Below, piece by piece: positions 3,289-20,949 of a stretch of 64,000 nucleotides of DNA (position 1 is its first letter; the number at the start of each line of letters is the position of its first letter). The stretch is from an uncultured Candidatus Rokubacteria bacterium (GTDB lineage: Bacteria > Methylomirabilota > Methylomirabilia > Rokubacteriales > CSP1-6). The stretch spans positions 480,001 through 544,000 of the forward strand of contig CAVXJS010000021.1 of the NCBI GenBank assembly GCA_963762145.1, in the 5' to 3' direction. The position numbers and the translations under genes were made by a program. The notes beneath the pieces are model-generated. The model worked only from the letters and a program-made list of their open reading frames with translations. It was not told the DNA's origin and did not search any database.

Positions 3289-4573
3289 CGGGCGCCCGCC
3301 AGAGCAGGTAGGCGAGCGGGCCGGTCAGCGCCGCGGCGACCCCGATCGCGGTGTTCGTCCACCCCGCGGTCGCCATCGCGAGCAGGCAGCAGCAGGACGG
3401 CAGCAGCGCCACCAGCCACATCCCGGCCCGGCCGCCGCCCACCCGCCACGGCCGCGGCAGCTCCGGCTCGCGGAGGCGCAGGGCCACGAACGCGGCCAGC
3501 TCCAGGAGCAGCGTGATCGAGTACAGCCAGATGTTCAGGACGATCAGCTCCTTGAAGCTCCAGAACGCGCAGACGCTGTACGCGACACTGGACAGGACCA
3601 CCGCGCCCCACGGCGTGGCGAAGCGCGGGTGGAGCCGCCCCAGCGCGGCCGGCATCTGGCCGGCCAGGGCCAGCACGTAGGGCAAGCGCGAGTTGGTGAG
3701 GAGCAGCGACAGGAAGAGCCCCACGGTGGCGAGCACCGCGCCGACCGCGACCAGGTTGGCGAGCCACGGCCCGCCGAGCGCCGCGGCGACCACCGGCCAG
3801 TGCCCGGTGTCCCAGTCCTCCCAGCCATCCACCGCCGAGAGGCTGGCCGCCACCGGCAGCACGTAGGCGAGCGTGATCAGGGGCAGCGCGACCCACACCG
3901 CGCGGCGAAAGCTCGGGCCCGGATCGCGCGTCTCGCCGAGCGTGGTGGTGGGCGCGTCCCAGCCCGAGTAGTTCCACATCATGATCGCGAGCCCCAGGCC
4001 GAGCCCGGTGAGCAGGCTCCCCTCCTCCGCCGCGAACGGGCGCCACGGGACCTCGCGGAGCTGCGTGCCCGCGAGCGCGGTGAGCACGACGACCGGCAGG
4101 AGCGACAGGCCCGCCATCGCCACCGCGACCCGGCCGGTGATGCGCACGCCCGCGAGGTTGATCGCGGTGAGGGTCCAGATGAAGGCGAGCACGAGGGCCC
4201 AGCGCTCGAGCGGGGACATGTGAGGGCGCCAGAAGCCGACGTAGTCCGCGAAGAGCGCGGGATAGACCGCCACGTCCACGAAGCTGTTGATCCAGCTCCA
4301 CCAGCCGGCCTGGAAGCTCCAGAAGCGGCCGAAGGCGCGCCGCACCCAGACCACGTAGCCGCCTTCTTCCGGGAGCGCGGCGGCGAGCTCCGCCATCGCG
4401 AGGCCAACGGGCAGGCTCCAGACCAGCGGAGTCACGAGCAGGAGGACCAGCGCGAGACCGGGGCCGAGGGTGCCGATCGCGTCCTCGAGCCCGTACGGAC
4501 CCCCGCTGACGTTGAAGAAGACGATGGCGACGAGGGAGAGGAGCCCGATCTCCCCTCGTCGGCGGGACCTCAC
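3269..4573 (-). CDS. APC-family amino acid/polyamine permease
   Basis: VSGGPYGLED, AELAAALPEEGGY, WNYSGWD; about 12 TM segments; GTG overlaps the upstream stop. Confidence 0.9.
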   Translation of the reverse strand: MRSRRRGEIGLLSLVAIVFFNVSGGPYGLEDAIGTLGPGLALVLLLVTPLVWSLPVGLAMAELAAALPEEGGYVVWVRRAFGRFWSFQAGWWSWINSFVDVAVYPALFADYVGFWRPHMSPLERWALVLAFIWTLTAINLAGVRITGRVAVAMAGLSLLPVVVLTALAGTQLREVPWRPFAAEEGSLLTGLGLGLAIMMWNYSGWDAPTTTLGETRDPGPSFRRAVWVALPLITLAYVLPVAASLSAVDGWEDWDTGHWPVVAAALGGPWLANLVAVGAVLATVGLFLSLLLTNSRLPYVLALAGQMPAALGRLHPRFATPWGAVVLSSVAYSVCAFWSFKELIVLNIWLYSITLLLELAAFVALRLREPELPRPWRVGGGRAGMWLVALLPSCCCLLAMATAGWTNTAIGVAAALTGPLAYLLWRAPVTRAAR

Positions 4574-4788
4574 GCCATGGCGGCTCGGATCAGCGCGGGC
4601 AGTCCCTCGAGCCACTCGTCCAGTGGCGTCTCCGCGTCCACCGTGATCTCGAACTTGCCGCTCGGCAGCTTGCGCACGCGGCCCTTGCCGGTGCCGAGCG
4701 GGATCACGAGCGCTTCACGGTGCACCCCGAGGGCGTCGGTGACCGCGAAGATCTTGTTGATCTCGGCCATGCCCACCGCCTCGAGCAT
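4570..4788 (-). CDS. Small hypothetical protein (72 aa)
   Basis: GC3-biased ORF translationally coupled to both neighbours. Confidence 0.7.
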   Translation of the reverse strand: MLEAVGMAEINKIFAVTDALGVHREALVIPLGTGKGRVRKLPSGKFEITVDAETPLDEWLEGLPALIRAAMA

Positions 4789-5174
4789 CAGGGAGCGCTC
4801 GGGGAACGCTCACCGCCCGGCACCAGCACCGGGGCCCGTCCATCGGGGGTGGTGACGACGAGCGGGGGGACCTCGACGCGCTGGCCGTTGACGTAACGCT
4901 CGTAGTGGCCGGGCACGAGCACCTCGCGCCCCAGGCTCGGCGAGTACACGCTGGCGGGCGGCACGTAGCGCTCGGTGGGCCGCGCGGGCATGGGCAGCGT
5001 GCTGAAGGGCTGGGTGGCGAGCCCGCGGGCCCGATCGATGGCGTCGGGCCGGCGGCCTCCGGGCAGGCCCTGCGCGGCGGCGGGCGCCGCGGCCAGCAGC
5101 AAGATTCCGATCACGATCGCGCGCATCGGGCTCATCACGTCGCCCAGCGTAGCGCCGGCAATGCGGATGCGCAA
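4788..5174 (-). CDS. Hypothetical exported Pro-rich protein (start uncertain)
   Basis: Signal peptide MRAIVIGILLLAAAPAAAQ; VPGHYER motif. Confidence 0.6.
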   Translation of the reverse strand: MRIRIAGATLGDVMSPMRAIVIGILLLAAAPAAAQGLPGGRRPDAIDRARGLATQPFSTLPMPARPTERYVPPASVYSPSLGREVLVPGHYERYVNGQRVEVPPLVVTTPDGRAPVLVPGGERSPSAP

Positions 5175-7540: not shown

Positions 7541-8517
7541 TGGCGGCCCCCCCGGCCTGGCGCTCGGCCGATCTGCCCATCCGGGTCGGCATCTCCTCCT
7601 GCCTGCTGGGCGAGGAGGTGCGCTACGACGGCGGCCACCAGAAGGACGCCTACATCACCGGCGTGCTCGCGCGCCACTTCACGTGGGTGCCGGTGTGCCC
7701 GGAGCTGGAGGTCGGCATGGGCGTGCCGCGCGAGCCGATCCGGCTGGTTGGCGACGCGGCCTCTCCGCGCCTGCTGGGCGTCGCGAGCGGGACCGACCAC
7801 ACCGACCGCATGGACGCGTTCGCGCGCCGGCGCGTGGAGGAGCTGCGGCGGCGCGAGCTCAGCGGCTACATCCTGAAGCGCGGCTCGCCCTCCTGCGGCC
7901 TCGAGCGGGTGAAGCTCTACACAGGGGACGGGCCGCCCGTGCGCACCGGCACCGGGCTCTTCGCGCGCGGGCTCACCGACGCGTTGCCGCTCCTGCCGGT
8001 GGAGGAGGAAGGCCGGCTCAACGACGCGCACCTGCGCGACAACTTCATCACCCGGGTCTTCGCCTACCGGCGCCTCGCCGCGCTGCGGGCCGCCGAGCCG
8101 CGCCCGGCCGCGGTGGTGGAGTTCCACACCGCGCACAAGTACCTGCTCCTCGCGCACAGCCCCGCGGCCTACGCGCGGCTGGGCCACCTAGTCGCGGAGG
8201 TTCCCCGCCTCGCGCGCGCGGGCTGGCTCGACGGGTACGCCGCGGGCTTCATGGCCGCCCTCGCCACGCGGGCGACGATCAAGAAGCACGTCAACGTCCT
8301 GCAGCACATCGTGGGCTTCTTCAAGACGCGGCTCGCGGCCGCCGAGAAGCGCGAGCTGCTCGGGATCATCGGCGACTACGCGGCCGGGCTCGTCCCGCTG
8401 GTGGTGCCCATCACGCTGATCAACCACCACGTCGCGCGCTTCGACGTGGCCTACGTCCGCGACCAGATCTACCTGCGGCCGCACCCGAAGGAGCTCATGC
8501 TCCGCAACCACGTATGA
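7540..8517 (+). CDS. DUF523 (TudS-like [4Fe-4S] thiouracil desulfidase) plus DUF1722 fusion
   Basis: GISSCLLGEEVRYDGG, PVCPE, SPSCG; FHTAHKYLLLAHS; ends PHPKELMLRNHV. Confidence 0.9.
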   Translation: MAAPPAWRSADLPIRVGISSCLLGEEVRYDGGHQKDAYITGVLARHFTWVPVCPELEVGMGVPREPIRLVGDAASPRLLGVASGTDHTDRMDAFARRRVEELRRRELSGYILKRGSPSCGLERVKLYTGDGPPVRTGTGLFARGLTDALPLLPVEEEGRLNDAHLRDNFITRVFAYRRLAALRAAEPRPAAVVEFHTAHKYLLLAHSPAAYARLGHLVAEVPRLARAGWLDGYAAGFMAALATRATIKKHVNVLQHIVGFFKTRLAAAEKRELLGIIGDYAAGLVPLVVPITLINHHVARFDVAYVRDQIYLRPHPKELMLRNHV

Positions 8518-8689: not shown

Positions 8690-11686
8690 GTGTTCCTCGC
8701 GGGCACGATCCTGGTCGTGCTGTTCACCGCGCACCAGCTCGACACCGAGCGGGAAACCGCCCTCACCCACTGGAAGAGCCGCCTCGCCACCATCACCGTC
8801 GACCGGACCCGTCTCGTCTCGAGCTGGCTCGCGGCCCGCCGCGCCGACGCGGAGGTGCTCGCCGCCTTCCCGGCGGTGCGCGCGCAGCTCGCGGGTCAGA
8901 CGCGGGACGACGAGGCGCTCGCGCGGCACCTGAGCCGCGTCGCCGCGGCCTACGGCTACGTGGGCATCGTGGTCGCGGACGCGAACGGCCACACTGCGGC
9001 CCGGTCCGCGTCCGACCCCGGGCTCGCGGCCGTGCTGCTGGAGCACGCCGCGGAGCAGGCCGCGCAGGTGGCCCGGAGCCGGAAGCCGCGCTTCGAGCTC
9101 GCGGGCGTGGGCGCGGGGCGGCTGCTCGTGGTCACGGTGCCCGTCTTCTCCGACGGCGCGCCCGCCGGCCTCGACGGCGACACGCGGCCGCTCCTCGGCG
9201 TGGTCACGCTCGGCGCCCGGCCGGAGGCCGGCCTCTACCCGCTCCTCGCCGACGACGCGGACCCGACGCACACCAGCGAGACGCTCCTGATCGACCTCGA
9301 GAGCGAGCCGCCCGCCTTTCTCTCGCCGCTGCGCCACCCCCTCCCGGCCGACGCCGAGACGCCGAAGCGCTCCCTCGCCGCCCTGGCCGGGCTCGCCCAG
9401 GCCGGCGCGCAGGGCCACGAGGCGGTCGGCGAGATGGTGGACTATCGCGGCGTGCCGGTGGTGGCCGCGGTGCGCCGGGTCCCGCCCACCGGCTGGTCGC
9501 TCGCGCTCGAGGTGAACCGCGACGAGGCGCTCGCCGAGTTCCAGCGCTCGAGGCGGCTGGCCGGCGCGGCGGCCGCCTTCCTGCTCCTGGCCCTGGCCGG
9601 CTTCCTGATCGCGCTCCACCGCGAGCAGCAGCGCGCGCGGCTGCTCCAGCAGCAGATGCGCCAGGCCCGCGCGATGACGAGCCTGCAGAGCTACGCGGAC
9701 AAGATCGTGGCGAGCGTGCCCGCCGGCCTGCTCCTGCTCTCGGAAGACCTGCACGTCCTCTCGGCCAACCGCGCCTTCCTCGAGTCGTTCCGGCTCCGCG
9801 AGGAGGAAGTGCTGGGGCGCGACCTCCAGCAGCTCGTGCGGGCGGAGCGGCTCATGCGCGGCGCCCGCGAGGCGCTCGCCACCGGCGCGACCCAGCAGGC
9901 CGGCCTCTACGAGCTCTACGTGTACGCGCGCCGCGACACCAAGCCCGCGCGCATCACCATGAGCGCGATTCACCTGGCCGACGACGAGCCGCCGCGCCTG
10001 CTCCTGATCGTCGAGGACCTCACCGAGGAGGAGCGGCTGCAGGCGGCCCACCAGGAGTCGGAGCAGCGCTACCGCGATCTCATCCAGGGCCTCGACGCCA
10101 TCGTGTGGGAAGCCGACGCGCACACCCTCACCTTCTCCTTCGTCAGCCGCCGCGCCGAGACCGTCCTCGGCTACCCGGTGGAGCGCTGGCTGCGCGAGCC
10201 CGACTTCTGGGCCCGCCGCATCCACCCGGAGGACCGCGACACGGTCATGCAGACCTACCGCACCGCGATCGCGGAGGCGCGGGACCACGAGTTCGAGTAC
10301 CGGGCGATCGCGGCGGACGGCCGCGAGGTGTGGCTGCGCGACATCGTCCACGTGGTACGCGACCCGGACGGCCGGGCCGCCACCCTGCGCGGCCTCACGG
10401 TGGACCTCACCGAGCTGAAGCGCTCGGAGCGCGCGCTGCACACGAGCGAGGAGCAGCTCCGGCAGGCGCAGAAGATGGACGCGGTGGGCAAGCTCGCGGG
10501 CGGAATCGCCCACGACTTCAACAACCTGCTGATGGTCATCCGCGGCGACAGCGACCTCATGCTGCGCCGCCTCGCGCCCGGCCACTCCCTGCGCCGCAAC
10601 GCGGAGGGCATCCGCGACGCGGCCGACCAGGCGGCCACCCTCACGCGGCAGCTCCTCGCGTTCAGCCGCAAGCAGGTCATGGCCCCGCGCCTCGTGGATC
10701 TCAACGGCATCGTGGCCAGCATCCACGCCATGCTCCAGCGGCTCCTCGGCGAGACGATCAACCTCGTCACGGTGACCGCGCCGGACCTGGGCGGGGTCAA
10801 GGCCGATCCCGGCCAGATGGAGCAGATGATCCTGAACCTCTGCGTGAACGCGCGCGACGCCATGCCCGACGGGGGCCGGCTCACCGTGCGCACCGCCAAC
10901 GTGGACCTGGACGAGGCGGCCGCCGCGCGCCTGAGCGACGCGCGGCCCGGCCCCTACGTCCTGCTCGAGGTCGGCGATACCGGGGTGGGCATGGATGCGG
11001 AGACCCGCTCGCACCTGTTCGAGCCGTTCTTCACCACCAAGGAGCAGGGCAAGGGGACCGGGCTCGGGCTCTCGACCGTGTACGGCACCGTGAAGCAGAG
11101 TGGCGGCCACATCTCGGTGGAGACCGAGCCGGGCCGCGGCTCCACGTTCACGGTCTATCTCCCCCGCGTGGCGGCTCAGGTCGGGCCGCCGGAGCGGCCC
11201 GCCGCGAACGCCCCCGCCTCGCGGAGCGGCGGCGCGCCCGAGGCGACCCTCACCCCGGGCCGCGGCGAGACCATCCTGCTGGTGGAGGACGCTCAGCGGG
11301 TACGGGCGGTGGTCCGGGAGATCCTCGAGATGAGCGGCTACGTCGTGCTCGAGGCGCGCCAGGGGGCGGAGGCCCTCGAGATCAGCAACCGGCACGCGGG
11401 ATCCATTCACCTGCTCGTCACCGACGTGGTCATGCCGCAGATGAGCGGGAGCGAGCTGGCGCAGCGCCTGGCCACCTTGCGCCCGGAGATGAAGGTGCTG
11501 TATATGTCCGGCTACACGGATGACGCCATCGTCAGGCACGGCGTGCTGGCCTCGGGCATCGCGTTTCTCTCCAAGCCGTTCACCCCGGACGCGCTCGCGC
11601 TCAAGGTGCGCGAGGTCCTCGACGGCGTGGCCGACCGGACGACCGCCGGCCCCTCCGTCACCCCCGGCGGCCGCACCCGCCGCTAG
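8690..11686 (+). CDS. Membrane hybrid sensor histidine kinase (Cache-like, PAS, PAS, HisKA, HATPase, REC); true start may be ATG 8581 with an indel
   Basis: Two TMs; AHDFNNLL; NARDAM; FFTTKEQGKGTGLGL; REC LLVED...TDVVMP...KP. Confidence 0.93.
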   Translation: MFLAGTILVVLFTAHQLDTERETALTHWKSRLATITVDRTRLVSSWLAARRADAEVLAAFPAVRAQLAGQTRDDEALARHLSRVAAAYGYVGIVVADANGHTAARSASDPGLAAVLLEHAAEQAAQVARSRKPRFELAGVGAGRLLVVTVPVFSDGAPAGLDGDTRPLLGVVTLGARPEAGLYPLLADDADPTHTSETLLIDLESEPPAFLSPLRHPLPADAETPKRSLAALAGLAQAGAQGHEAVGEMVDYRGVPVVAAVRRVPPTGWSLALEVNRDEALAEFQRSRRLAGAAAAFLLLALAGFLIALHREQQRARLLQQQMRQARAMTSLQSYADKIVASVPAGLLLLSEDLHVLSANRAFLESFRLREEEVLGRDLQQLVRAERLMRGAREALATGATQQAGLYELYVYARRDTKPARITMSAIHLADDEPPRLLLIVEDLTEEERLQAAHQESEQRYRDLIQGLDAIVWEADAHTLTFSFVSRRAETVLGYPVERWLREPDFWARRIHPEDRDTVMQTYRTAIAEARDHEFEYRAIAADGREVWLRDIVHVVRDPDGRAATLRGLTVDLTELKRSERALHTSEEQLRQAQKMDAVGKLAGGIAHDFNNLLMVIRGDSDLMLRRLAPGHSLRRNAEGIRDAADQAATLTRQLLAFSRKQVMAPRLVDLNGIVASIHAMLQRLLGETINLVTVTAPDLGGVKADPGQMEQMILNLCVNARDAMPDGGRLTVRTANVDLDEAAAARLSDARPGPYVLLEVGDTGVGMDAETRSHLFEPFFTTKEQGKGTGLGLSTVYGTVKQSGGHISVETEPGRGSTFTVYLPRVAAQVGPPERPAANAPASRSGGAPEATLTPGRGETILLVEDAQRVRAVVREILEMSGYVVLEARQGAEALEISNRHAGSIHLLVTDVVMPQMSGSELAQRLATLRPEMKVLYMSGYTDDAIVRHGVLASGIAFLSKPFTPDALALKVREVLDGVADRTTAGPSVTPGGRTRR

Positions 11687-11713: not shown

Positions 11714-12124
11714 ATGATCGATCGCCCCATTCGCGTGCTGGTGGCCAAGGTCGGCCTCGACGGACACGACCGCGGGGCGAAGATCGTGGCCCGCTGCCTT
11801 CGCGACGCGGGCATGGAGGTCGTCTACACCGGACTGCACCGCACGCCCGAGGAAGTGGTGGCGGCCGCGGTGCAGGAGGACGTCGACGTGCTCGGCATCA
11901 GCATCCTCTCGGGCGCCCACCTGACGCTCTTCCCCCGCGTGCTCGAGCTGATGCGCGGCGCGCGCGCCGGGGACATCCTGCTGGTGGCGGGCGGCGTCAT
12001 TCCGGACGAGGACGTGCCCGTGCTGCGCGACATGGGCGTGGCCGAGGTGATCCTGCAGGACACGCCGCCCGACACGATCGTCGCCCGCATCCGCGACCTG
12101 GTGGCGGCCCGGCCGACCTGCTGA
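11714..12124 (+). CDS. hcmB: B12-binding small subunit of 2-hydroxyisobutyryl-CoA mutase
   Basis: [10 protein letters not shown] base-off/His-on motif; GLHRTPEE and LQDTPP as recalled for HcmB; operon context. Confidence 0.85.
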
Positions 12125-12128
12125 TCCC

Positions 12129-13589
12129 ATGACCGAGCCGGATGAGGCCGCGCTCGGCCGGACGCGCGGCGTGGACCTGACGGTCTGGCCGCCGCGCTAC
12201 GACGCGACCTACCGGCCCGCCCCGTCCGCCGAGCACTGGCTGCCCGAGATCGAGTGCGCGGATCCGGCCGCGCGCGACGCGCTGATCTTCGCCAAGCTGA
12301 CCCACCAGGTGCGCTACGCGTGGGAGCGGAGCCCGTTCTACCGGCGCCGGTGGCAGGAGGCGGGCGTGTCGCCCGAGACCCTCAAGAGCCTCGACGACCT
12401 CGCGCGCTTCCCGGTGGTGCAGAAGGCGGAGCTGCGCGCCGCGCAGGCGGCCGCGCCGCCCTTCGGCGACTACCTCTGCATCGAGCCCGCGCAGGTGGCG
12501 CGCATCCACGGGACCAGCGGCACCACCGGGCGGCCCACCGTGTTCGGCATCGGAGCGGACGACTGGGACCGGATCGGCGAGGCCCACGCGCGCATCCTCT
12601 GGGGAGCCGGCATCCGGCCGGGCGACCGCATCCTGATCTGCTCGTTCTTCAGCCTCTATCTGGGCTCGTGGGGCGCCCTCGCGGGCGGGGAGCGGCTCGG
12701 CGCCACCGTGTTCCCCTTCGGGGCGGGCGCGCAGGGCCAGACGCTCGGGGCCGTGCAGTGGGCGCGCGATCTCCGCCCCTCCGCCTTCTACGGCACGCCG
12801 TCCTACGCGCTGCACTTCGCGGAGACCGCCCGCCGCGAGGGCATCGACCCCGCGGGCCTGGGCTTCCGCATCCTCTTCTTCTCCGGCGAGCCCGGCGCGG
12901 GGATCCCCGCGACCCGGGCGCTGATCGAGCAGACCTTCGGCGGCATCTGCGTGGACATGGGCAGCATGGCCGAGATGTCGCCCTGGATGACCAACGGCGA
13001 GTGCCGCCATCGGACCGGCATGCACCTCTGGCAGGATCTCGTCTACACGCAGGTCTGCGATCCGGAGACGTTCCGGCCCCTGCCCTACGGCGCCGAGGGC
13101 ACCCCCGTGTACACTCACCTCGAGCGGACGTCGCAGCCGATGATCCGGCTGGTCTCGGGCGACCGCGCGCGGTGGGTGGACGACCCGTGCCCCTGCGGGC
13201 GGACCTACCCGCGCCTGCCGCACGGCCTCTACGGCCGCTTCGACGACATGATCATCGTGCGCGGCGAGAACATCTACCCGAGCGCCATCGAGGACACGCT
13301 GCGCGCCATCGACGGCTTCGGCGGCGAGTTCCGGGTGATCGTCTCGCGCCGCGAGGCCATGGACGAGCTGCTGGTGCGCGCCGAGTACACCGCGGCCCAC
13401 GGCGGGCAGGTCGAGCCGCTGCGCGCCCTGATGCGCGAGCGCCTGCGGGCGCGCCTGGGCGTGCACCCGGTGGTGGATCTCGTCCCCGAGGGCACGCTCC
13501 TCCGCACCGAGTTCAAAGCCCGCCGCGTGATCGACGACCGCGATCTCTACCACCAGGGACTTCTACCCGGAGACACTCGCCATGTTTGA
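12129..13589 (+). CDS. hcl: 2-hydroxyisobutyrate-CoA ligase (PaaK-like adenylate-forming enzyme)
   Basis: HGTSGTTGRP, SLYLGSWG, GSMAEMSP, THLERTSQPMIRL, FKARRVID; lies between the mutase subunits. Confidence 0.82.
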   Translation: MTEPDEAALGRTRGVDLTVWPPRYDATYRPAPSAEHWLPEIECADPAARDALIFAKLTHQVRYAWERSPFYRRRWQEAGVSPETLKSLDDLARFPVVQKAELRAAQAAAPPFGDYLCIEPAQVARIHGTSGTTGRPTVFGIGADDWDRIGEAHARILWGAGIRPGDRILICSFFSLYLGSWGALAGGERLGATVFPFGAGAQGQTLGAVQWARDLRPSAFYGTPSYALHFAETARREGIDPAGLGFRILFFSGEPGAGIPATRALIEQTFGGICVDMGSMAEMSPWMTNGECRHRTGMHLWQDLVYTQVCDPETFRPLPYGAEGTPVYTHLERTSQPMIRLVSGDRARWVDDPCPCGRTYPRLPHGLYGRFDDMIIVRGENIYPSAIEDTLRAIDGFGGEFRVIVSRREAMDELLVRAEYTAAHGGQVEPLRALMRERLRARLGVHPVVDLVPEGTLLRTEFKARRVIDDRDLYHQGLLPGDTRHV

Positions 13590-15264
13590 TCCCGAAGCGC
13601 TCAAGCGCCTGGCCGCCGAGAAGGCGGCCTGGGACGCCAAGGAGCTCGCCGAGTTCCTCGCCCGCCAGCCGGAGGCGCGCACCGACTATCGCACCGGCTC
13701 CGGCATGCCGGTGCAGCGCCTGTACACGCCGGCGGACATCGCGGACGCGCCCGCCGACAACATCGGCCTGCCCGGCCAGTTCCCCTACACGCGCGGGCCG
13801 TATCCCACGATGTACCGCGGGCGCAACTGGACGATGCGCCAAATCGCGGGCTTCGGCACCGGGGCCGACACCAACGGGCGCTTTCGCTACCTGATCGAGC
13901 AGGGGCAGACCGGGCTCAGCGTGGACTTCGACATGCCGACCCTGATGGGCTACGACTCCGACGATCCGCGCTCGCTCGGCGAGGTCGGCCGCGAGGGGGT
14001 CGCCATCGACACCCTCGACGACATGGAGGCGCTCTTCGCGGACATCGACCTCGAGCGCATCTCGGTCTCGATGACGATCAACCCGAGCGCGTGGATCCTC
14101 CTCGCGATGTACGTGGCGCTCGCGGAGTCGCGCGGCTTCGACCTGAACAAGCTGTCCGGCACCGTGCAGGCCGACATCCTGAAGGAGTACATCGCGCAGA
14201 AGGAGTGGATCTTCCCGATCCGCCCCTCGATGCGCGTGATGCGCGACATGATCGTGTGGAGCGCGCGGAATCTCGCCCGCTACAACCCCATCAACATCAG
14301 CGGCTATCACATCTCCGAAGCGGGGGCGACCTCGGTGCAGGAGCTCGCCTTCACGATGGCGAACGCGATCGCCTACGTGGAGGAGGTGACCCGGGCGGGG
14401 GTGCCGGTCGACGAGTTCGCGCCGCGCCTGGCCTTCTACTTCGTAGCCCAGGCCGACTTCTTCGAGGAGGTCGCCAAGTTCCGCGCGGCCCGGCGCATCT
14501 ACGCGCGGCTCATGAAGGACCGCTTCGGCGCGACGAAGGCCGAGTCGATGCGCCTGCGCTTCCACTGCCAGACCGCGGCGGCCACCCTCACCAAGGCGCA
14601 GCCGCTCAACAACATCATCCGCACCGCCTTCCAGGCGCTGTCCGCGGTGCTGGGCGGGGCCCAGTCGCTCCACACCAACGGCATGGACGAGGCCTACGCG
14701 ATCCCCTCCGAGGAGGCGATGAAGATCGCGCTGCGGACCCAGCAGATCATCGCGATGGAGACGCGCGTGCCGCAGGTGGTGGATCCGCTCGGCGGCTCCT
14801 ACTACGTCGAGGCGCTGACCAACCGCGTCGAGGCCGAGGTCCTCCGCATCCTGGCCAAGGTGGACGCGATGGGCGGCACCATCAAGGCCATCGAGGAGGG
14901 CTTCTTCCAGCACGAGATCGCCGACTCCGCCTACGACTTCGCCCGGCGCAAGGCGGCGGGCGAGCAGCCAGTCATAGGCGTCAATACACTGGTCGAACCG
15001 TCCGAGCCGCCGCCCCTGCCCATCCACAAGGTGGACCCCGCGGTGGAGGCGCGCCAGATCGGCCGGCTGAAGGACGTGCGGCGGCGGCGCGACCAGGCCC
15101 TCGTGGATCGCCTGATGGACCGGCTCGAGCGCGAGGCGCGCGAGCCCGCGACCAACATCATGCCGGTGACGATCGAGCTCGTGAAGGCGCGCGCCACGCT
15201 GGGCGAGATCGTGGCGCGGCTCCGCCACGTCTGGGGCGCCTACATCGAGCGGCCGGTGTTCTGA
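13582..15264 (+). CDS. hcmA: 2-hydroxyisobutyryl-CoA mutase large subunit
   Basis: MCM-family barrel with MRQIAGFG (Ile88) and SVDFDMPT (Asp115) instead of the MCM RQYAGF motif. Confidence 0.88.
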   Translation: MFDPEALKRLAAEKAAWDAKELAEFLARQPEARTDYRTGSGMPVQRLYTPADIADAPADNIGLPGQFPYTRGPYPTMYRGRNWTMRQIAGFGTGADTNGRFRYLIEQGQTGLSVDFDMPTLMGYDSDDPRSLGEVGREGVAIDTLDDMEALFADIDLERISVSMTINPSAWILLAMYVALAESRGFDLNKLSGTVQADILKEYIAQKEWIFPIRPSMRVMRDMIVWSARNLARYNPINISGYHISEAGATSVQELAFTMANAIAYVEEVTRAGVPVDEFAPRLAFYFVAQADFFEEVAKFRAARRIYARLMKDRFGATKAESMRLRFHCQTAAATLTKAQPLNNIIRTAFQALSAVLGGAQSLHTNGMDEAYAIPSEEAMKIALRTQQIIAMETRVPQVVDPLGGSYYVEALTNRVEAEVLRILAKVDAMGGTIKAIEEGFFQHEIADSAYDFARRKAAGEQPVIGVNTLVEPSEPPPLPIHKVDPAVEARQIGRLKDVRRRRDQALVDRLMDRLEREAREPATNIMPVTIELVKARATLGEIVARLRHVWGAYIERPVF

Positions 15265-16409
15265 TGCCGCCCCGGCCCTTCCGCATCGAGGTCCCCGAGG
15301 GCACCCTCGCGGACCTGCGCGAGCGCCTCGCCCGCGCGCGCTGGCCCGACCAGGCGCCCGGCGCGGAGTGGGCGTTCGGCACGAGCCTCGCGTACATGAA
15401 GGAGCTCGTCGCGTACTGGACGGACCGCTACGACTGGCGCGCGCACGAGGCGCGGCTCAACGGGTTCCGCCAGTTCACGGCCCCGGTGGGAGGCATCGAT
15501 CTCCACTTCATCCACGAGGAGGGCCGCGGGCCGGACCCGCTCCCGCTGCTGCTCTCCCACGGCTGGCCCGGCTCGGTCTGGGAGTTCTACAAGATCCTGC
15601 CCATGCTCACCGATCCCGCGCGCTTCGGCGGCGACCCGGCCGACGCGTTCACGGTGATCGCGCCCTCGCTGCCCGGCTACGGGTTCTCGTTCGCGCCCGG
15701 CCAGCCGCGCTTCGGCATCGCGGAGATCGCCGACCTCTTCGCGTCGCTCATGACCGACACGCTCGGCTACCGCCGCTTCGCCGCGCAGGGCGGCGACTGG
15801 GGCGGCTTCATCACGTCGAAGCTGGGCGCCGCGTATCCCGACCGGCTCGCGGCCATCCACGTGAACCTGCTGTCGCTGCGCCGCGACATCAAGCCGCCGG
15901 CCCAGCCCTCGCCGGAGGAGAAGCAGTACCTCGAGGATCTCGGTCGGTGGCAGCGCGAGGAGACGGGCTACCAGTGGATCCAGGGCACCCGGCCCCAGAC
16001 GCTGGCCTTCGGCCTGAGCGATTCCCCGGTGGGCCTCGCGGCCTGGATCGTGGAGAAGTTCCGGACCTGGAGCGACTGCGACGGCGACGTCGAGCGCCGC
16101 TTCACCAAGGACGAGCTGCTCACCAACGTGATGATCTACTGGGTGACCGGCAGCATCAACGCCTCCTTCTGGCCCTACTACGCGCGCTTCCACTCGCCGT
16201 GGCCCATCGCGGACGGCCAGCGCATCGAGGTCCCGACCGGCTACGCCGCGTTCCCGAAGGAGATCGTGCGGCCGCCGCGGGCCTGGGCCGAGCGCATGTA
16301 CAACATCCGGCGCTGGACGGTGATGCCGGCGGGCGGCCACTTCGCGGCGATGGAGGAGCCGGCCGCGCTGGCGCAGGAGCTCCGCGCCTTCTTCCGGGAG
16401 TCGCGCTGA
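15264..16409 (+). CDS. Epoxide hydrolase (microsomal type, EHN plus alpha/beta)
   Basis: YDWRAHEARLN, HGWPGS, QGGDWG, GGHFAAME; TGATG overlap with hcmA. Confidence 0.93.
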   Translation: MPPRPFRIEVPEGTLADLRERLARARWPDQAPGAEWAFGTSLAYMKELVAYWTDRYDWRAHEARLNGFRQFTAPVGGIDLHFIHEEGRGPDPLPLLLSHGWPGSVWEFYKILPMLTDPARFGGDPADAFTVIAPSLPGYGFSFAPGQPRFGIAEIADLFASLMTDTLGYRRFAAQGGDWGGFITSKLGAAYPDRLAAIHVNLLSLRRDIKPPAQPSPEEKQYLEDLGRWQREETGYQWIQGTRPQTLAFGLSDSPVGLAAWIVEKFRTWSDCDGDVERRFTKDELLTNVMIYWVTGSINASFWPYYARFHSPWPIADGQRIEVPTGYAAFPKEIVRPPRAWAERMYNIRRWTVMPAGGHFAAMEEPAALAQELRAFFRESR

Positions 16410-17254
16410 CGCGCCGCCGGCGGCGGGCCACCACCGTCGTCCTGGCGGCTCTCCTGGCCGCCACCGTCGGGTTCGTCGTGTGGGCGGTCGGCATCGAGCC
16501 CGGCCGGGTGGTGCTGCGGGAGACGCCGGTTTCGATCGCGCGCTGGCCCGCCGACCTCGGGCCCCTCCGGATCGCCGCGCTCGCCGATCTGCACACCGGG
16601 TCGCCCCACATCACGGTGGCCAAGCTGCGCGAGATCGTGGCGTCCGTGAACGCGGCGCAGCCGGACCTGATCGTGCTGCTCGGGGACTACGTCATCCACG
16701 GGGTGGCCGGCGGCCGGTTCGTGGAGATCGAGCAGACCGCGGCGGCGCTGCGCGACCTGAAGGCGCCGCTCGGCGTCTTCGCGGTGCTCGGCAATCACGA
16801 CTGGTGGTACGACGGGGCCCGCTGCGTCCGCGCGCTCGAGGCGGTGGGCATCCACGTCCTGGAAGACGCCGCTGCCGAGGTGACGGTGCGCGGCCACTCC
16901 CTCTGGATCGCGGGGGTCAGCGACCTCCGGACCCGCCCGGCCGCGATCGGCCGCGCGCTCGCGCCGGTGCCGGCGGGCGCGTCGGTGATCGTCCTCACCC
17001 ACAACCCGGATGTCTTCGCCCGCATGCCCGCGCGCGTGCTGCTCACCCTGGCCGGGCACACCCACGGCGGCCAGGTGAACCTGCCCGTGCTCGGGCGCCT
17101 CATCGTGCCGTCGCACTTCGGGGATCGCTACGCGATCGGCCACATCCACGAGGACGACCGCGACCTCTTCGTCTCGCCCGGCATCGGCACCAGCATCGTC
17201 CCGGTGCGGTTCCGCGTGCCGCCCGAGGTCTCGATGCTCACGGTGGGGCGGTGA
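16406..17254 (+). CDS. Metallophosphoesterase (YkuE/YaeI-like), N-terminal TM; start uncertain
   Basis: ADLH, LGDY, GNHD, HNPD, GHTHGGQ. Confidence 0.88.
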   Translation: MTRRRRRATTVVLAALLAATVGFVVWAVGIEPGRVVLRETPVSIARWPADLGPLRIAALADLHTGSPHITVAKLREIVASVNAAQPDLIVLLGDYVIHGVAGGRFVEIEQTAAALRDLKAPLGVFAVLGNHDWWYDGARCVRALEAVGIHVLEDAAAEVTVRGHSLWIAGVSDLRTRPAAIGRALAPVPAGASVIVLTHNPDVFARMPARVLLTLAGHTHGGQVNLPVLGRLIVPSHFGDRYAIGHIHEDDRDLFVSPGIGTSIVPVRFRVPPEVSMLTVGR

Positions 17255-19329
17255 AGGCCCCCACCCGGAGTCAGCGCACGCGTCTGCTCGCGAGCGCGGC
17301 GCCCGCGCTCGGCGTCGCGCTCGTGCTCACCGCCGCCTCGCTCTGGGGGTTCCTCGCCGCCACCCGCGCGCGGGTCGGCGACCTGCTCTTCAACGCGCGC
17401 CCGGCCCAGACCGCGCGCTCCACCGTGATCGTGGGCATCGACGAGAAGAGCTACCAGGCGCTGCTCGGGCGCCACGGCCCGCTCTCGGCCTGGCCCCGCA
17501 CGCTCTACGCCGACGCCCTCGACGCCCTCCGGCCCGCCGCCCCGCGCGTGGTAGCCTTCGCGATCTTCTTCGACGCGCAGCGGCCCGAGGACGGCGCGCT
17601 CGCCGAGGCGATGCGTCGCGCCGGCAACGTGGTCGTGCCCGTGGTGGCGCAGGGGGCGAGGGCCTTCGATCCGCGCCCGGGCGTCGCCCAGGAGTTCGAG
17701 ACCTTCGTCCGGCCGGCCGCCACCGTGCGGAGCGCGGCGGTGGACGAGGGGCTGGCCAACATCACCACCGGGCGGGACAGCGTGGTCCGGCGCCTTCCCC
17801 TCCTCCTCCGCGCCGGCGGCGAGGAGCTGCCGAGCCTGGCCCTCACCATCGTGGCGCGCTTCACGCGCCGGCCGGTCGTCCTGGACGCGCACGCGGAGCC
17901 CGGCCTCCTCCACGCGGCGGGCCGGACGATTCCGGTCGCGGAGCACGACACGATGCTGATCGATTTTCTCGGCCCGCCGTCCGAGCCGGGGGGCGCCGGG
18001 CCCTTCCCGATTCTCTCGTTCGTGGACGTGCTCGAAGGCCGCTTCGATCCCGCGCTGGTCCGCGACCGCATCGTGCTGCTGGGCCCGACCATCCGGGGCG
18101 TGGACGAGCACGCTACTCCGACCACCGGCGACACGCGGATGTGGGGCGTCGAGATCCTGGGCAACGCGGTCGAGACGGTGCTGTATCAGCGCTTCCTCTC
18201 GCCCGTCGGGCCCGGCACCACCGCCATCCTGATCGGGGGCATGGCCCTGCTCGCCGCGCTCGTGGTCGCGACGTGGCGGCCCCTGCCCGCCGGGCTGGCG
18301 GTCGCGGCCGGGCTCGCCCTCTACGGGACCGCGGCGGCCCTGCTCTTCGAGCGCGGCGTCGTGCTGGACCTGGTCTACCCGCCGGCCGCGCTGCTGATCA
18401 GCTTCGCGGCCGCGCTCTCCTCGCGCCTCGTTCTGGAGCAGGCGGAGCAGCGAATAGTCCGGGAGGCGATGGGCCGCTATCTCTCGCCCGCGGTGAGCCA
18501 GTGGGTCCTCGCCGATCCGGACCGTTTGCGGCTCGGCGGCGAGACGCGAGAGATGACGGTGCTCTTCAGCGACCTCCGTCAGTTCACCACGCTCGCCCAC
18601 GCGCTGCCTCCCGCGACGCTGGTGGCCCTGCTCAACACCTACCGCACCGGGATGGCGGACGTGGTCTTCCGCCACGACGGCGTGCTCGCCCAGTACGCGG
18701 GCGACGCCATCGAGGCCTTCTGGAACGCGCCGATGGACCAGGCCGACCACGCGCGGCGCGCCTGTCTGACCGCGCTCGACATGGTGGCGGCGCTCGCGAC
18801 GCTGCGCCCGCAGTTCGAGGCGCGGGGCTGGGCCCATCTCGACCTGGGCGTGGGGATCAACACCGGGCAGATGGTGGTGGGCAACATGGGCTCGAAGGAT
18901 CGCCTGATCTACACCGCGGTCGGCGATCCGGTGAACGTGGCCGCGCGGCTCGAGGGGCTCTCCAAGGAATACGGCGTGCGGATCGTGGTGGGCGAGGCCA
19001 CCGTCGCCGCCGAGCCGCGGGCCCTCGTCTACCGCATCCTCGACCGGGTCGCGGTCAAGGGGCGTGGCGAGCCGCTCACCTGCTACGAGGTGCTCGCGCG
19101 CGCGGGCGCGCTCGATCCCGCGGGCGAGCGCCGGCTCGCGCGCTACCACGAGGCCCTCGCGCTCTACCGCGCGCGGCGATGGGCCGAGGCGATCCGCCTG
19201 CTCGACGAGCTCGGCGCCGAGGCGCCCACCGACGGGCCCATCGCGCTCTACCAGCGGCGCGCGCGCGCCCTGCTCACGGATCCGCCCCCCGCCGACTGGG
19301 ACGGCGTCTTCGTCGCGGAGTCGAAGTAG
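17251..19329 (+). CDS. CHASE2-domain class III adenylate/guanylate cyclase with C-terminal TPR-like helix
   Basis: IVGIDEKS, WPR, DSVVRR, GVEI; three TMs; SDLRQFT, GDA, VNVAARLEG, VKGR, WDGVF. Confidence 0.92.
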   Translation: MKAPTRSQRTRLLASAAPALGVALVLTAASLWGFLAATRARVGDLLFNARPAQTARSTVIVGIDEKSYQALLGRHGPLSAWPRTLYADALDALRPAAPRVVAFAIFFDAQRPEDGALAEAMRRAGNVVVPVVAQGARAFDPRPGVAQEFETFVRPAATVRSAAVDEGLANITTGRDSVVRRLPLLLRAGGEELPSLALTIVARFTRRPVVLDAHAEPGLLHAAGRTIPVAEHDTMLIDFLGPPSEPGGAGPFPILSFVDVLEGRFDPALVRDRIVLLGPTIRGVDEHATPTTGDTRMWGVEILGNAVETVLYQRFLSPVGPGTTAILIGGMALLAALVVATWRPLPAGLAVAAGLALYGTAAALLFERGVVLDLVYPPAALLISFAAALSSRLVLEQAEQRIVREAMGRYLSPAVSQWVLADPDRLRLGGETREMTVLFSDLRQFTTLAHALPPATLVALLNTYRTGMADVVFRHDGVLAQYAGDAIEAFWNAPMDQADHARRACLTALDMVAALATLRPQFEARGWAHLDLGVGINTGQMVVGNMGSKDRLIYTAVGDPVNVAARLEGLSKEYGVRIVVGEATVAAEPRALVYRILDRVAVKGRGEPLTCYEVLARAGALDPAGERRLARYHEALALYRARRWAEAIRLLDELGAEAPTDGPIALYQRRARALLTDPPPADWDGVFVAESK

Positions 19330-19874: not shown

Positions 19875-20792
19875 ATGAAGCTCGGATTCGCGCTCCCGAC
19901 CGCGGGTGACTGGGCCACGCCGGAGAACCAGATTCGCGTCGCGCGCCAGGCCGAGGCGCTCGGCTACCATTCGCTCTGGGTCTTCCAGCGTCTGCTCTAC
20001 GCGCTCGAGCCCAAGAACGAGTACCCGCCGGTGCCGGGCAAGACGTGGCCCAAGCCGTTCGAGCGCGTCTTCGATCCGATCGTCACCCTCGCCTACGTGG
20101 CCGCGGCCACCCAGCGCATCCGCCTCGGCACCAGCGTGCTGATCATGCCGTTCTACCAGCCGGTCGTCCTCGCCAAGCAGCTCGCCACGCTGGACGTGCT
20201 CTCGGGCGGCCGCCTGGACGTGGGGCTCGGCCTCGGCTGGTCGCAGGACGAGTACGAGGCGGTCGGTGTGCCCTTCAAGCACCGGGGCCGCCGTGCCGAC
20301 GAGTTCCTCCGCTGCCTCGACGCGATCTGGAGCCAGGACGTGACCGAGTTCCACGGCGAGTTCTACCACGTGCCGCGCTCGCGGGTGGAGCCGAAGCCGG
20401 TGCAGAAGCCGCGCCCGCCCATCACCATCGGCGGCTACGGCTCGACGGTCGTGAAGCGCGCGGTGGAGCTGGGCGACGGCTTCAACGGGGGCAACGTACC
20501 GATGGCCAGCGTGGCCCCGCTGGTGAAGGAAGTGAAGGACGCGGCGGCCGCGCTCGGGAAGGACCCGGGCTCGCTCCACATTGTCTGCCGCGGCACGTAC
20601 CGCGTCCACGACAGCCCCCAGGGCTCGGACCGCCGCCCGCTCTGGGGAACGCTCGACGAGATCCGCGAGGACATCGGCCGCTATGCGGAGGCCGGCCTGA
20701 CCGAGCTGTTCCTGGAGGGCAATTTCACGCCCGGCGGCGCCTCGCTCGAGCAGGCGCTCGAGGTGATGGCGCGCCTGGCGCCCGGCCGCTGA
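19875..20792 (+). CDS. LLM-class flavin/F420-dependent oxidoreductase
   Basis: DPIVTLAYVAAAT, LGTSVLI, LDVLSGGR, PKPVQKPRPPI. Confidence 0.9.
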   Translation: MKLGFALPTAGDWATPENQIRVARQAEALGYHSLWVFQRLLYALEPKNEYPPVPGKTWPKPFERVFDPIVTLAYVAAATQRIRLGTSVLIMPFYQPVVLAKQLATLDVLSGGRLDVGLGLGWSQDEYEAVGVPFKHRGRRADEFLRCLDAIWSQDVTEFHGEFYHVPRSRVEPKPVQKPRPPITIGGYGSTVVKRAVELGDGFNGGNVPMASVAPLVKEVKDAAAALGKDPGSLHIVCRGTYRVHDSPQGSDRRPLWGTLDEIREDIGRYAEAGLTELFLEGNFTPGGASLEQALEVMARLAPGR

Positions 20793-20904: not shown

Positions 20905-20949
20905 ATTTCATTAGGTTGTCCCGGGCATGGGGGCGGCACTTTTCTTGCT
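20905..20949 (+). promoter_or_regulatory. Sigma54 promoter with upstream IHF-like site
   Basis: CGGCACTTTTCTTGCT (GG 20935, GC 20947); ATTTCATTAGGTTG at 20905-20918. Confidence 0.7.

Follow-up and report, generated by a model that had tools for sequence, protein, structure and literature searches.

An epoxide hydrolase gene overlapping hcmA in a Rokubacterial 2-hydroxyisobutyryl-CoA mutase cluster: gene order or pathway?

Does an epoxide hydrolase (EH) gene that shares a base with a mutase gene also share the pathway of that mutase? The question is raised by a 64,000-nt stretch of contig CAVXJS010000021.1 (assembly GCA_963762145.1, positions 480,001 to 544,000 of the forward strand), hereafter the window, from an uncultured Candidatus Rokubacteria bacterium, in which an EH gene directly follows hcmB, hcl, and hcmA, the genes for the two subunits of 2-hydroxyisobutyryl-CoA mutase (HCM) and for 2-hydroxyisobutyrate-CoA ligase (HCL). 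An earlier note on this DNA had proposed a candidate isobutene-oxide route here, that is, a module free of monooxygenases for scavenging branched epoxides made by other microbes. The route as such is published, as far as the available text of PMC13188929 and PMC7176365 goes: the epoxide is converted to 2-methyl-1,2-propanediol and this to 2-hydroxyisobutyrate (2-HIBA), which leads to HCM, and in Mycolicibacterium sp. ELW1 the hydrolysis is carried out by IbcK (PMC13188929). The reading that we favor, with a confidence only a little above even, is another one: the EH would be a general hydrolase that detoxifies or scavenges small epoxides, transcribed and translated along with a genuine hcmB-hcl-hcmA unit owing to a gene order inherited in one Rokubacterial lineage.

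The unit consists of the following features (positions in the window).

11714 to 12124, + strand: hcmB, small B12-binding subunit of HCM, 136 aa (PDB 4r3u_C, 187 bits; TIGR00640, 153 bits; PF02310, 87 bits)
12129 to 13589, + strand: hcl, 2-hydroxyisobutyrate-CoA ligase, PaaK-like, 486 aa (PDB 6hdw_A, 584 bits, against 247 for phenylacetate-CoA ligase)
13582 to 15264, + strand: hcmA, large substrate-binding subunit of HCM, 560 aa (PDB 4r3u_A, 836 bits)
15262 to 15266, + strand: TGATG stop/start overlap of hcmA and EH with one shared base (sequence; identical in 22 of 35 relatives' loci)
15264 to 16409, + strand: EH of the microsomal (EHN) type, predicted to be soluble, 381 aa (Pfam EHN and Abhydrolase_1; PDB 5f4z and 4i19)

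The first three genes form an hcm cluster of a known type. The large subunit aligns with 4r3u_A end to end (residues 3 to 560) at the 836 bits given above, against 455 for human methylmalonyl-CoA mutase (MCM), 406 for P. shermanii MCM, and 262 for IcmF, so that, judged by these alignments, the gene is a true hcmA, as the earlier note had called it, nearer to HcmA than to methylmalonyl-, isobutyryl-, or other acyl-CoA mutases. Two pocket segments agree with this assignment, reading RQIAGFG and VDFDMPT in the window, RQIAGFG and TDFDMPT in HcmA, and RQYAGFS and VAFDLAT in human MCM (residue positions were counted on the printed alignment). They presumably hold the HCM signature, Ile A90 and Asp A117, in place of the Tyr and the Ala/Arg-region residues of MCM; these labels reportedly go back to Kurteva-Yaneva 2015. 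Residues 16 to 21 of HcmB are DGHDRG, which fits the DxHxxG B12-binding motif of a separate small subunit. The best matches of HcmB, HCL, and HcmA are all solved Aquincola enzymes. With hcl sitting between hcmB and hcmA, the operon tie between mutase and ligase is present, and along the hcmB-hcl-hcmA-EH unit the genes stand 4 nt apart at the first junction and overlap by 8 nt at the second and by 1 nt at the third. HCL would activate 2-hydroxyisobutyrate to its CoA ester, and the B12-dependent HcmAB, by its predicted activity, would isomerize 2-hydroxyisobutyryl-CoA to (S)-3-hydroxybutyryl-CoA. The three proteins are orthologous to those of the hcmAB-hcl-meaH cluster of Aquincola tertiaricarbonis L108 (HcmA 836, HcmB 187, and HCL 584 bits), and the order hcmB-hcl-...-hcmA is that of all eight loci from other phyla; unlike the Aquincola-type clusters, the window lacks meaH and has an EHN-type EH appended to hcmA. 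The nearest public hcmA loci belong to metagenome-assembled genomes labeled Methylomirabilia or Rokuibacteriota, at 78 to 84% identity. The DNA runs that hold at least half of the sampled words of the stretch are soil metagenomes from five studies, one of which may be the source sample, and metatranscriptome runs with small shares of the stretch also exist.

The hydrolase is of the common microsomal type, and on this point the earlier note was right. A match to the EHN domain (PF06441, 129 bits) takes up residues 3 to 108 and covers the whole profile, and the alpha/beta-hydrolase fold is recognized as well (PF00561, 69 bits). The bacterial EHs 5f4z (330 bits) and 4i19 (286 bits) head the PDB matches and align over their full length, followed by insect juvenile-hormone EH and fungal EHs, with the EHN domain and the alpha/beta fold shared throughout (1qo7, fungal, and 4qla, insect, included). 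As similarity to 5f4z and 4i19 is only moderate, and the operon context differs too, their substrate range cannot be transferred to the window enzyme. The ATG start is sound, because the EHN domain and the top two PDB alignments begin at residues 2 to 5. Animal microsomal EH carries an N-terminal membrane anchor; the window protein begins two residues before the EHN domain and has no such anchor, so it is predicted to be soluble, as 5f4z and 4i19 are. It is the one EHN gene of the source genome (6.26 Mb in 25 contigs, 88% complete, 5.4% contamination).

Among its residues we find HGWP (99 to 102), Asp178 in GGDWG, Tyr236, Tyr305, Glu333, and His359 in GGHF, and the HGWP, GGDxG, and GGHF motifs line up with 5f4z and 4i19. 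We take these to be the oxyanion motif HGXP, the Asp nucleophile, the two lid tyrosines, and the His/acid relay of the family. Asp178 would form an alkyl-enzyme on a small epoxide activated by the two lid tyrosines, and His359 with Glu333 would hydrolyze the intermediate to a vicinal diol, a chemistry predicted from the residues. To follow the gene through the phylum we surveyed 251 Methylomirabilota genomes (G076, G216, G044, and G217, flagged as unpublished, enter tallies only) and gathered 114 EH orthologues (identity 62% or higher) with flanks of up to 6 kb per side, the window and L015 included; neighbors (HcmA, HcmB, HCL, MeaB, LLM-class oxidoreductases, and others) were placed by tblastn around the EH loci, and locus counts rest on the 111 loci with a near-full-length EH. 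HGWP, Asp178, Tyr236, Tyr305, and Glu333 are invariant in 111/111 orthologues and His359 in 110/111, which suggests that the orthologues are under selection.

The overlap that the earlier note described between hcmA and the 381-aa open reading frame is present in the sequence: the TGA of hcmA occupies positions 15262 to 15264 and the ATG of EH positions 15264 to 15266, in the context ...ttcTGATGccg.... Of the 35 loci in which hcmA is close to EH, 22 repeat this TGATG exactly (17 in g1, 3 in g8, and 2 in g21), so the junction is no assembly artifact, and the EHs of the assemblies that share it are 80 to 96% identical; g20, G047, and G221 have short spacers in place of the overlap. Overlaps of 1 or 4 bases are frequent in the window (17251/17254, 23169/23172, 24200/24203, 32531/32534, 37684/37687, and 38622/38625, with gene boundaries from heuristic gene calls), and we therefore take the one between hcmA and EH as a mark of operon membership and nothing special. 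With a shared base and no intergenic DNA, EH is most likely transcribed together with hcmA, and its translation is most likely coupled as well, as ribosomes that have just finished with hcmA would go on to translate EH. A scan for consensus promoters between positions 8000 and 21000 gave 0 promoter-like sites, although such scans are weak in DNA of 72% GC (71.7% G+C for the window).

The linkage between hcmA and EH in relatives, which the earlier note had named as a check of its proposal, holds in part. The part that stands is an hcmA gene directly upstream of EH in 28 of the 111 loci from six genera (16 in g1, 3 in g8, 5 in g20, 2 in g21, 1 in g47, and 1 in family f11, f11:g66), to which can be added five loci with hcmA 0.8 to 5.5 kb upstream on the same strand; two more g1 loci show the 3' end of hcmA, one cut (G158) and one partly masked (G160). 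The remaining EH genes lie behind an ArsC-family gene (32 loci), in other contexts (39 loci), or at contig ends (7 loci). What does not stand is a general association of the two genes. The 32 loci behind ArsC form a conserved M17 leucyl aminopeptidase-PHP-ArsC-EH operon (g6, g7, g9, g26, and g35; L101 and L102 among them) that ends in an EH orthologue 73 to 77% identical to that of the window, nine other loci have a DUF4142 gene upstream of EH (seen in g5), and EH occurs in 0 of the 9 HCM loci labeled as other phyla, within a fetched flank of 2.6 to 8 kb downstream. On long contigs, hcm and EH can also lie far apart (1.9 Mb in G242, 1.8 Mb in G243, and 28 kb in G117).

The presence of the two enzymes tells the same story at the level of genomes. 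An EH-type match (E<=1e-40, a threshold that also catches paralogues about 50% identical) is found in 137 of the 251 genomes and HCL (E<=1e-120) in 117, and they do not track each other: g7 has EH in 14/17 genomes and HCL in 0/17, g12 has EH in 3/3 and HCL in 0/3, g2 and g19 have EH in 0/4 and HCL in 4/4, and family f2 has EH in 13/21 and HCL in 20/21. We ascribe the arrangement in the window to inherited gene order and not to a dedicated pathway because the same orthologue ends unrelated operons and persists without HCM, while HCM clusters elsewhere are without EH; a general role in detoxification or scavenging is what we infer for the enzyme. As neither partner depends on the other, linkage alone should not support an annotation as "isobutene-oxide pathway".

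Several variants of these loci deserve mention in their own right. In three genomes of the same genus, G155 (L092), G150 (L093), and G143 (L112), hcl is gone and hcmB-hcmA-EH is kept, and in G159 (L094) hcl is cut to 278 aa; a search for HCL elsewhere in these four genomes gave no match at E<=1e-120. In three g8 loci (L015, L091, and L095) a block of 4 to 5 kb on the opposite strand separates hcmA from EH (9515 to 14445 in L015) and consists of MreB, a nucleotidyl transferase, an AI-2E transporter, and two small open reading frames. A comparison of EHs in the hcm and ArsC contexts gave five differing positions (88, 105, 106, 205, and 335; e.g., W106 versus V), a pattern that we rejected as a signature since it is indistinguishable from plain phylogeny.

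The chaperone gene of such clusters bears on another claim, namely, that the EH occupies the slot where MeaH/MeaB usually sits, and here the earlier note was mistaken. MeaB lies between hcl and hcmA in 8/8 HCM loci of other phyla (L010, L012, L013, L014, L043, L073, L080, and L083; tblastn with a cluster-encoded MeaB query), and the same position is found within Methylomirabilota in L008/L103, the g20 genomes, G047, and G139. The g20 genomes and G047 have both meaH between hcl and hcmA and an EH after hcmA; with the chaperone slot upstream of hcmA and both genes present in the same loci, we rejected a replacement of MeaH by EH. The cluster meaH is absent from g1, g8, and g21, and the window cluster is likewise without MeaB, whose sole strong match in the source genome is at C11:515390-516133 (251 bits). 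This absent MeaH is an accessory feature that leaves the mutase assignment unaffected. At the meaH position of other lineages, genome G144 (L088, positions 4119 to 5114) has a gene for an ABC-transporter substrate-binding protein (PF04392) between hcl and hcmA. Rohwerder et al. describe hcl as usually accompanied by hcmAB or rcmAB, meaH, and a GntR regulator, in the part of PMC7176365 that is available.

Around the unit lie the following features.

8690 to 11686, + strand: hybrid sensor histidine kinase with PAS, HisKA, HATPase_c, and receiver domains (Pfam, NCBIfam)
16478 to 17254, + strand: calcineurin-like metallophosphoesterase, YaeI-like, start uncertain (Pfam PF00149, NCBIfam NF008460)
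17251 to 19329, + strand: CHASE2-domain adenylate/guanylate cyclase (Pfam PF05226 and PF00211)
19875 to 20792, + strand: F420-dependent LLM-class oxidoreductase, TIGR03619, Rv2161c family (NCBIfam, 250 bits, cut-off 167)
20915 to 20937, + strand: best terminator-like hairpin downstream of the co-directional block (terminator scan, weak)

The histidine kinase ends 27 nt before hcmB and has a homologue upstream of hcmB in g1, g8, g20, and g21; it may be the sensor for the hcm operon, in contrast to the GntR regulator of published hcm clusters (PMC7176365, available part). The metallophosphoesterase follows EH in 16 loci, and in 23 loci a homologue of the CHASE2 cyclase is found further along the EH strand, downstream of EH. 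Neither the kinase nor the cyclase has an evident metabolic link to the hcm genes, yet both are syntenic. The frame of the metallophosphoesterase is open upstream of its first GTG (16403 to 16480, + strand), where it codes for a hydrophobic N-terminus rich in Arg (…LTRRRRRATTVVLAALLAATVGF…) and offers neither ATG nor GTG nor TTG; translation could really begin at a CTG that overlaps the stop codon of EH. With 3 terminator-like sites where shuffled sequence leads one to expect 2.1, the terminator scan is weak evidence; the sole site inside the co-directional block is a 5-pair stem at 17547.

The LLM-class oxidoreductase is found right behind EH in some relatives. In eight g8/g21 genomes (G111, G112, G113, G115, G116, G118, G184, and G119; loci L097, L098, L120, L122, L124, L125, L091, and L015) its orthologue begins 15 to 20 nt after EH, an adjacency that holds even where a 4- to 5-kb insertion or relocation has parted EH from hcmA. 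In g1 it lies 1.5 to 4.4 kb downstream of EH, behind the inserted phosphoesterase/cyclase pair.

Our reading of an inherited gene order has to be weighed against several observations that speak for a closer bond. The hcmA-EH junction is the most stable one of the cluster, since it persists without meaH (g1, g8, and g21), without hcl (G143, G150, and G155, with hcl truncated in G159), and despite the insertion of the ABC-binding-protein gene (G144) and varied downstream neighbors. A quick maximum-likelihood tree, built from the 111 EHs with family f2 as its root, scatters the hcm context over about five positions, among them the early-branching g20, G221, and G047, the last from a different family; this tree has 9 label changes, many unsupported forks, and an outgroup that is not monophyletic. 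Taken with due caution, such a distribution suggests either an old context in the family with several later losses or more than one gain, and it hints at selection. The LLM gene is kept beside EH in g8 and g21 and its product could provide a diol-oxidizing step, an F420-dependent oxidation of the diol being conceivable in the source genome because an F420 ligase is present. Absences from the source genome are provisional, because the assembly is 88% complete. Finally, the available text of PMC7176365 states that no natural origin of the 2-HIBA used by strains of pristine habitats has been identified, a real gap that a feeding role of EH would fill.

These points lead to the best placed of the alternatives, which we nevertheless consider improbable: a dedicated module free of monooxygenases, in which EH would convert branched epoxides of outside origin (isobutene oxide, isoprene monoxide) to a 1,2-diol, to be converted to 2-HIBA or a close analogue and handed over to HCL and then HcmAB, the oxidation of the diol falling possibly to the F420-dependent LLM-class enzyme and an aldehyde dehydrogenase. 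The published isobutene pathway proceeds by exactly these steps, and strain IBE200 has its EH and dehydrogenase genes immediately upstream of those for the ligase and the mutase (PMC13188929, available part). In the phylum, this module is favored by the hcmA-EH adjacency in 28 loci of six genera, with an identical overlap in 22, and by the LLM gene (TIGR03619, 250 bits) that adjoins EH in 8 relatives, an F420 ligase being present in the source genome. The claim of a monooxygenase-free setting also fits the genome, as a search for soluble di-iron monooxygenases (PF02332) found no match in the 88% complete assembly, and just 2 of 20 same-genus genomes have one, in one case at E 8.7e-4.

The search for a diol dehydrogenase, on the other hand, counts against such a module. 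No match to the GMC oxidoreductases (PF00732) was found in the same 88% complete assembly, which leaves the oxidations from the diol to 2-HIBA without a gene of known type; the diol dehydrogenase MpdB/IbcH is presumably a member of the GMC family, an assumption prompted by its size of 59.8 kDa (PMC13188929). The window cluster contains no aldehyde dehydrogenase, a generic kind of enzyme, with no search aimed at MpdC/IbcJ. The LLM-class enzyme is the only nearby candidate for the diol step in the source genome, and its adjacency is diluted by more than 50 tblastn matches to LLM paralogues there, numbers that make a neighboring LLM weak evidence.

A comparison with the ibc clusters of Mycolicibacterium sp. 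ELW1 and IBE200 points in the same direction. Both systems tie an EH genomically to CoA-ligase and B12-mutase genes for 2-HIBA, but the ibc clusters encode a di-iron monooxygenase, an alcohol dehydrogenase, and an aldehyde dehydrogenase, and the window cluster encodes none of these. IbcK, the characterized isobutylene EH (34.6 kDa; PDB 9c2g), matches the window EH at 39.9 bits over residues 77 to 194 only, which is the core hydrolase fold, so by alignment it is a merely remote relative. Also counting against a dedicated module are the lack of correlation between EH and HCL across the 251 genomes, the orthologues in an unrelated conserved operon (32) and in other contexts (39), the retention of EH in the three genomes that have lost hcl, and the absence of EH from all nine HCM loci labeled as other phyla.

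Compared with these two readings, we hold it unlikely that hcmA and EH are adjacent by chance and do not share expression, in which case EH would have a promoter inside hcmA and a regulation of its own and the overlap would reflect compact packing in a high-GC genome. The many 1- and 4-base overlaps in the window would agree with such packing, as would the g20 loci, where a spacer of 12 to 13 nt with a GGAG-like stretch precedes the ATG, which would make EH translatable alone there, and the g8 loci where EH stands 4 to 28 kb from hcmA. Contrary to it, no intergenic DNA is left between hcmA and EH, the promoter scan came up empty (weak as it is at 72% GC), and a junction kept identical in 22 assemblies at 80 to 96% EH identity argues for constraint. 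Last, we regard as very improbable a role tied to the mutase, such as clearing a reactive side product of the 2-hydroxyisobutyryl-CoA/3-hydroxybutyryl-CoA chemistry or hydrolyzing a non-epoxide ester, for which the sole point is the stability of the hcmA-EH junction even without hcl, whereas the residues that mark a true epoxide hydrolase are all invariant, orthologues are present in the HCM-free g7 and g12, and we know of no activity of either kind in EHN-type enzymes.

Some observations concern partner enzymes in other genomes. PF02332 is detectable in 55 of the 251 genomes, mostly as weak single matches (best about 50 to 63 bits), and we rejected a correlation of di-iron monooxygenases with the hcm-EH pair, as the matches concentrate in the HCL-free g7 (17/17) and not in the hcm-EH genera. 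The single matches in g7 (17/17) and g5 (9/12) fall in frames mostly of about 265 to 340 aa (e.g., G099:C337:12071-12688) and are probably not full multicomponent monooxygenases. An acetone/formyl-CoA entry by a lyase was considered for the relatives without hcl and likewise rejected, since the 2-hydroxyacyl-CoA lyase model NF058623 stays below its 600-bit cut-off in G143, G150, and G155; the source genome (best 382 bits) and G139 (503 bits for its cluster gene) have no match over the cut-off either. A thiamine pyrophosphate (TPP) enzyme of the lyase kind does occur in the hcm loci of two relatives, with 759 bits in L083 (9647 to 11476), over the cut-off, and with 503 bits in L096 (9752 to 11446, between hcl and meaH), below it, so mutase and lyase routes may coexist in one cluster. 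In the lyase-HCL cluster of Actinomycetospora chiangmaiensis, HCL is again the first enzyme to act on 2-HIBA (PMC7176365, available part), with 2-hydroxyacyl-CoA lyase where the window cluster uses the mutase. In the actinobacterium Conexibacter sp. (L014, 9662 to 12332), hcmA is followed by a small open reading frame, a zinc alcohol dehydrogenase, and a 400-aa LLM-class oxidoreductase, the latter two being possible diol-oxidizing partners in another phylum.

The hcm cluster itself is thus of a known type, and the EHN-type EH appended to hcmA is a new variation on it, for which our literature searches found no prior description: full-text searches gave no paper in which hcmA is tied to an EHN-type hydrolase or in which HCM is connected with Rokubacteria, and PMC6544822, where the taxon term and the HCM term both occur, treats them apart in its available text. 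We regard the hcmA-EH arrangement as a modest lead and not as a demonstrated pathway. It is doubtful, though conceivable, that the hcm operon of a single lineage among the soil Rokubacteria recruited an EHN-type EH and an F420-dependent LLM-class enzyme for scavenging branched epoxides without a monooxygenase, and we are just as hesitant about the course that such a route would take, from epoxides released by other organisms or by abiotic oxidation to a 1,2-diol, a tertiary 2-hydroxy acid, and a 3-hydroxyacyl-CoA. HCL/HCM clusters occur in many bacteria of unpolluted habitats (PMC7176365, available part), and HCL is found in 117 of the 251 genomes of this phylum. If the recruited route were true, it would reveal where the 2-HIBA consumed by these widespread clusters comes from in nature, together with a new F420-dependent diol dehydrogenase, and for a group without cultured members, the conserved, probably coupled EH behind hcmA offers a cheap and concrete hypothesis.

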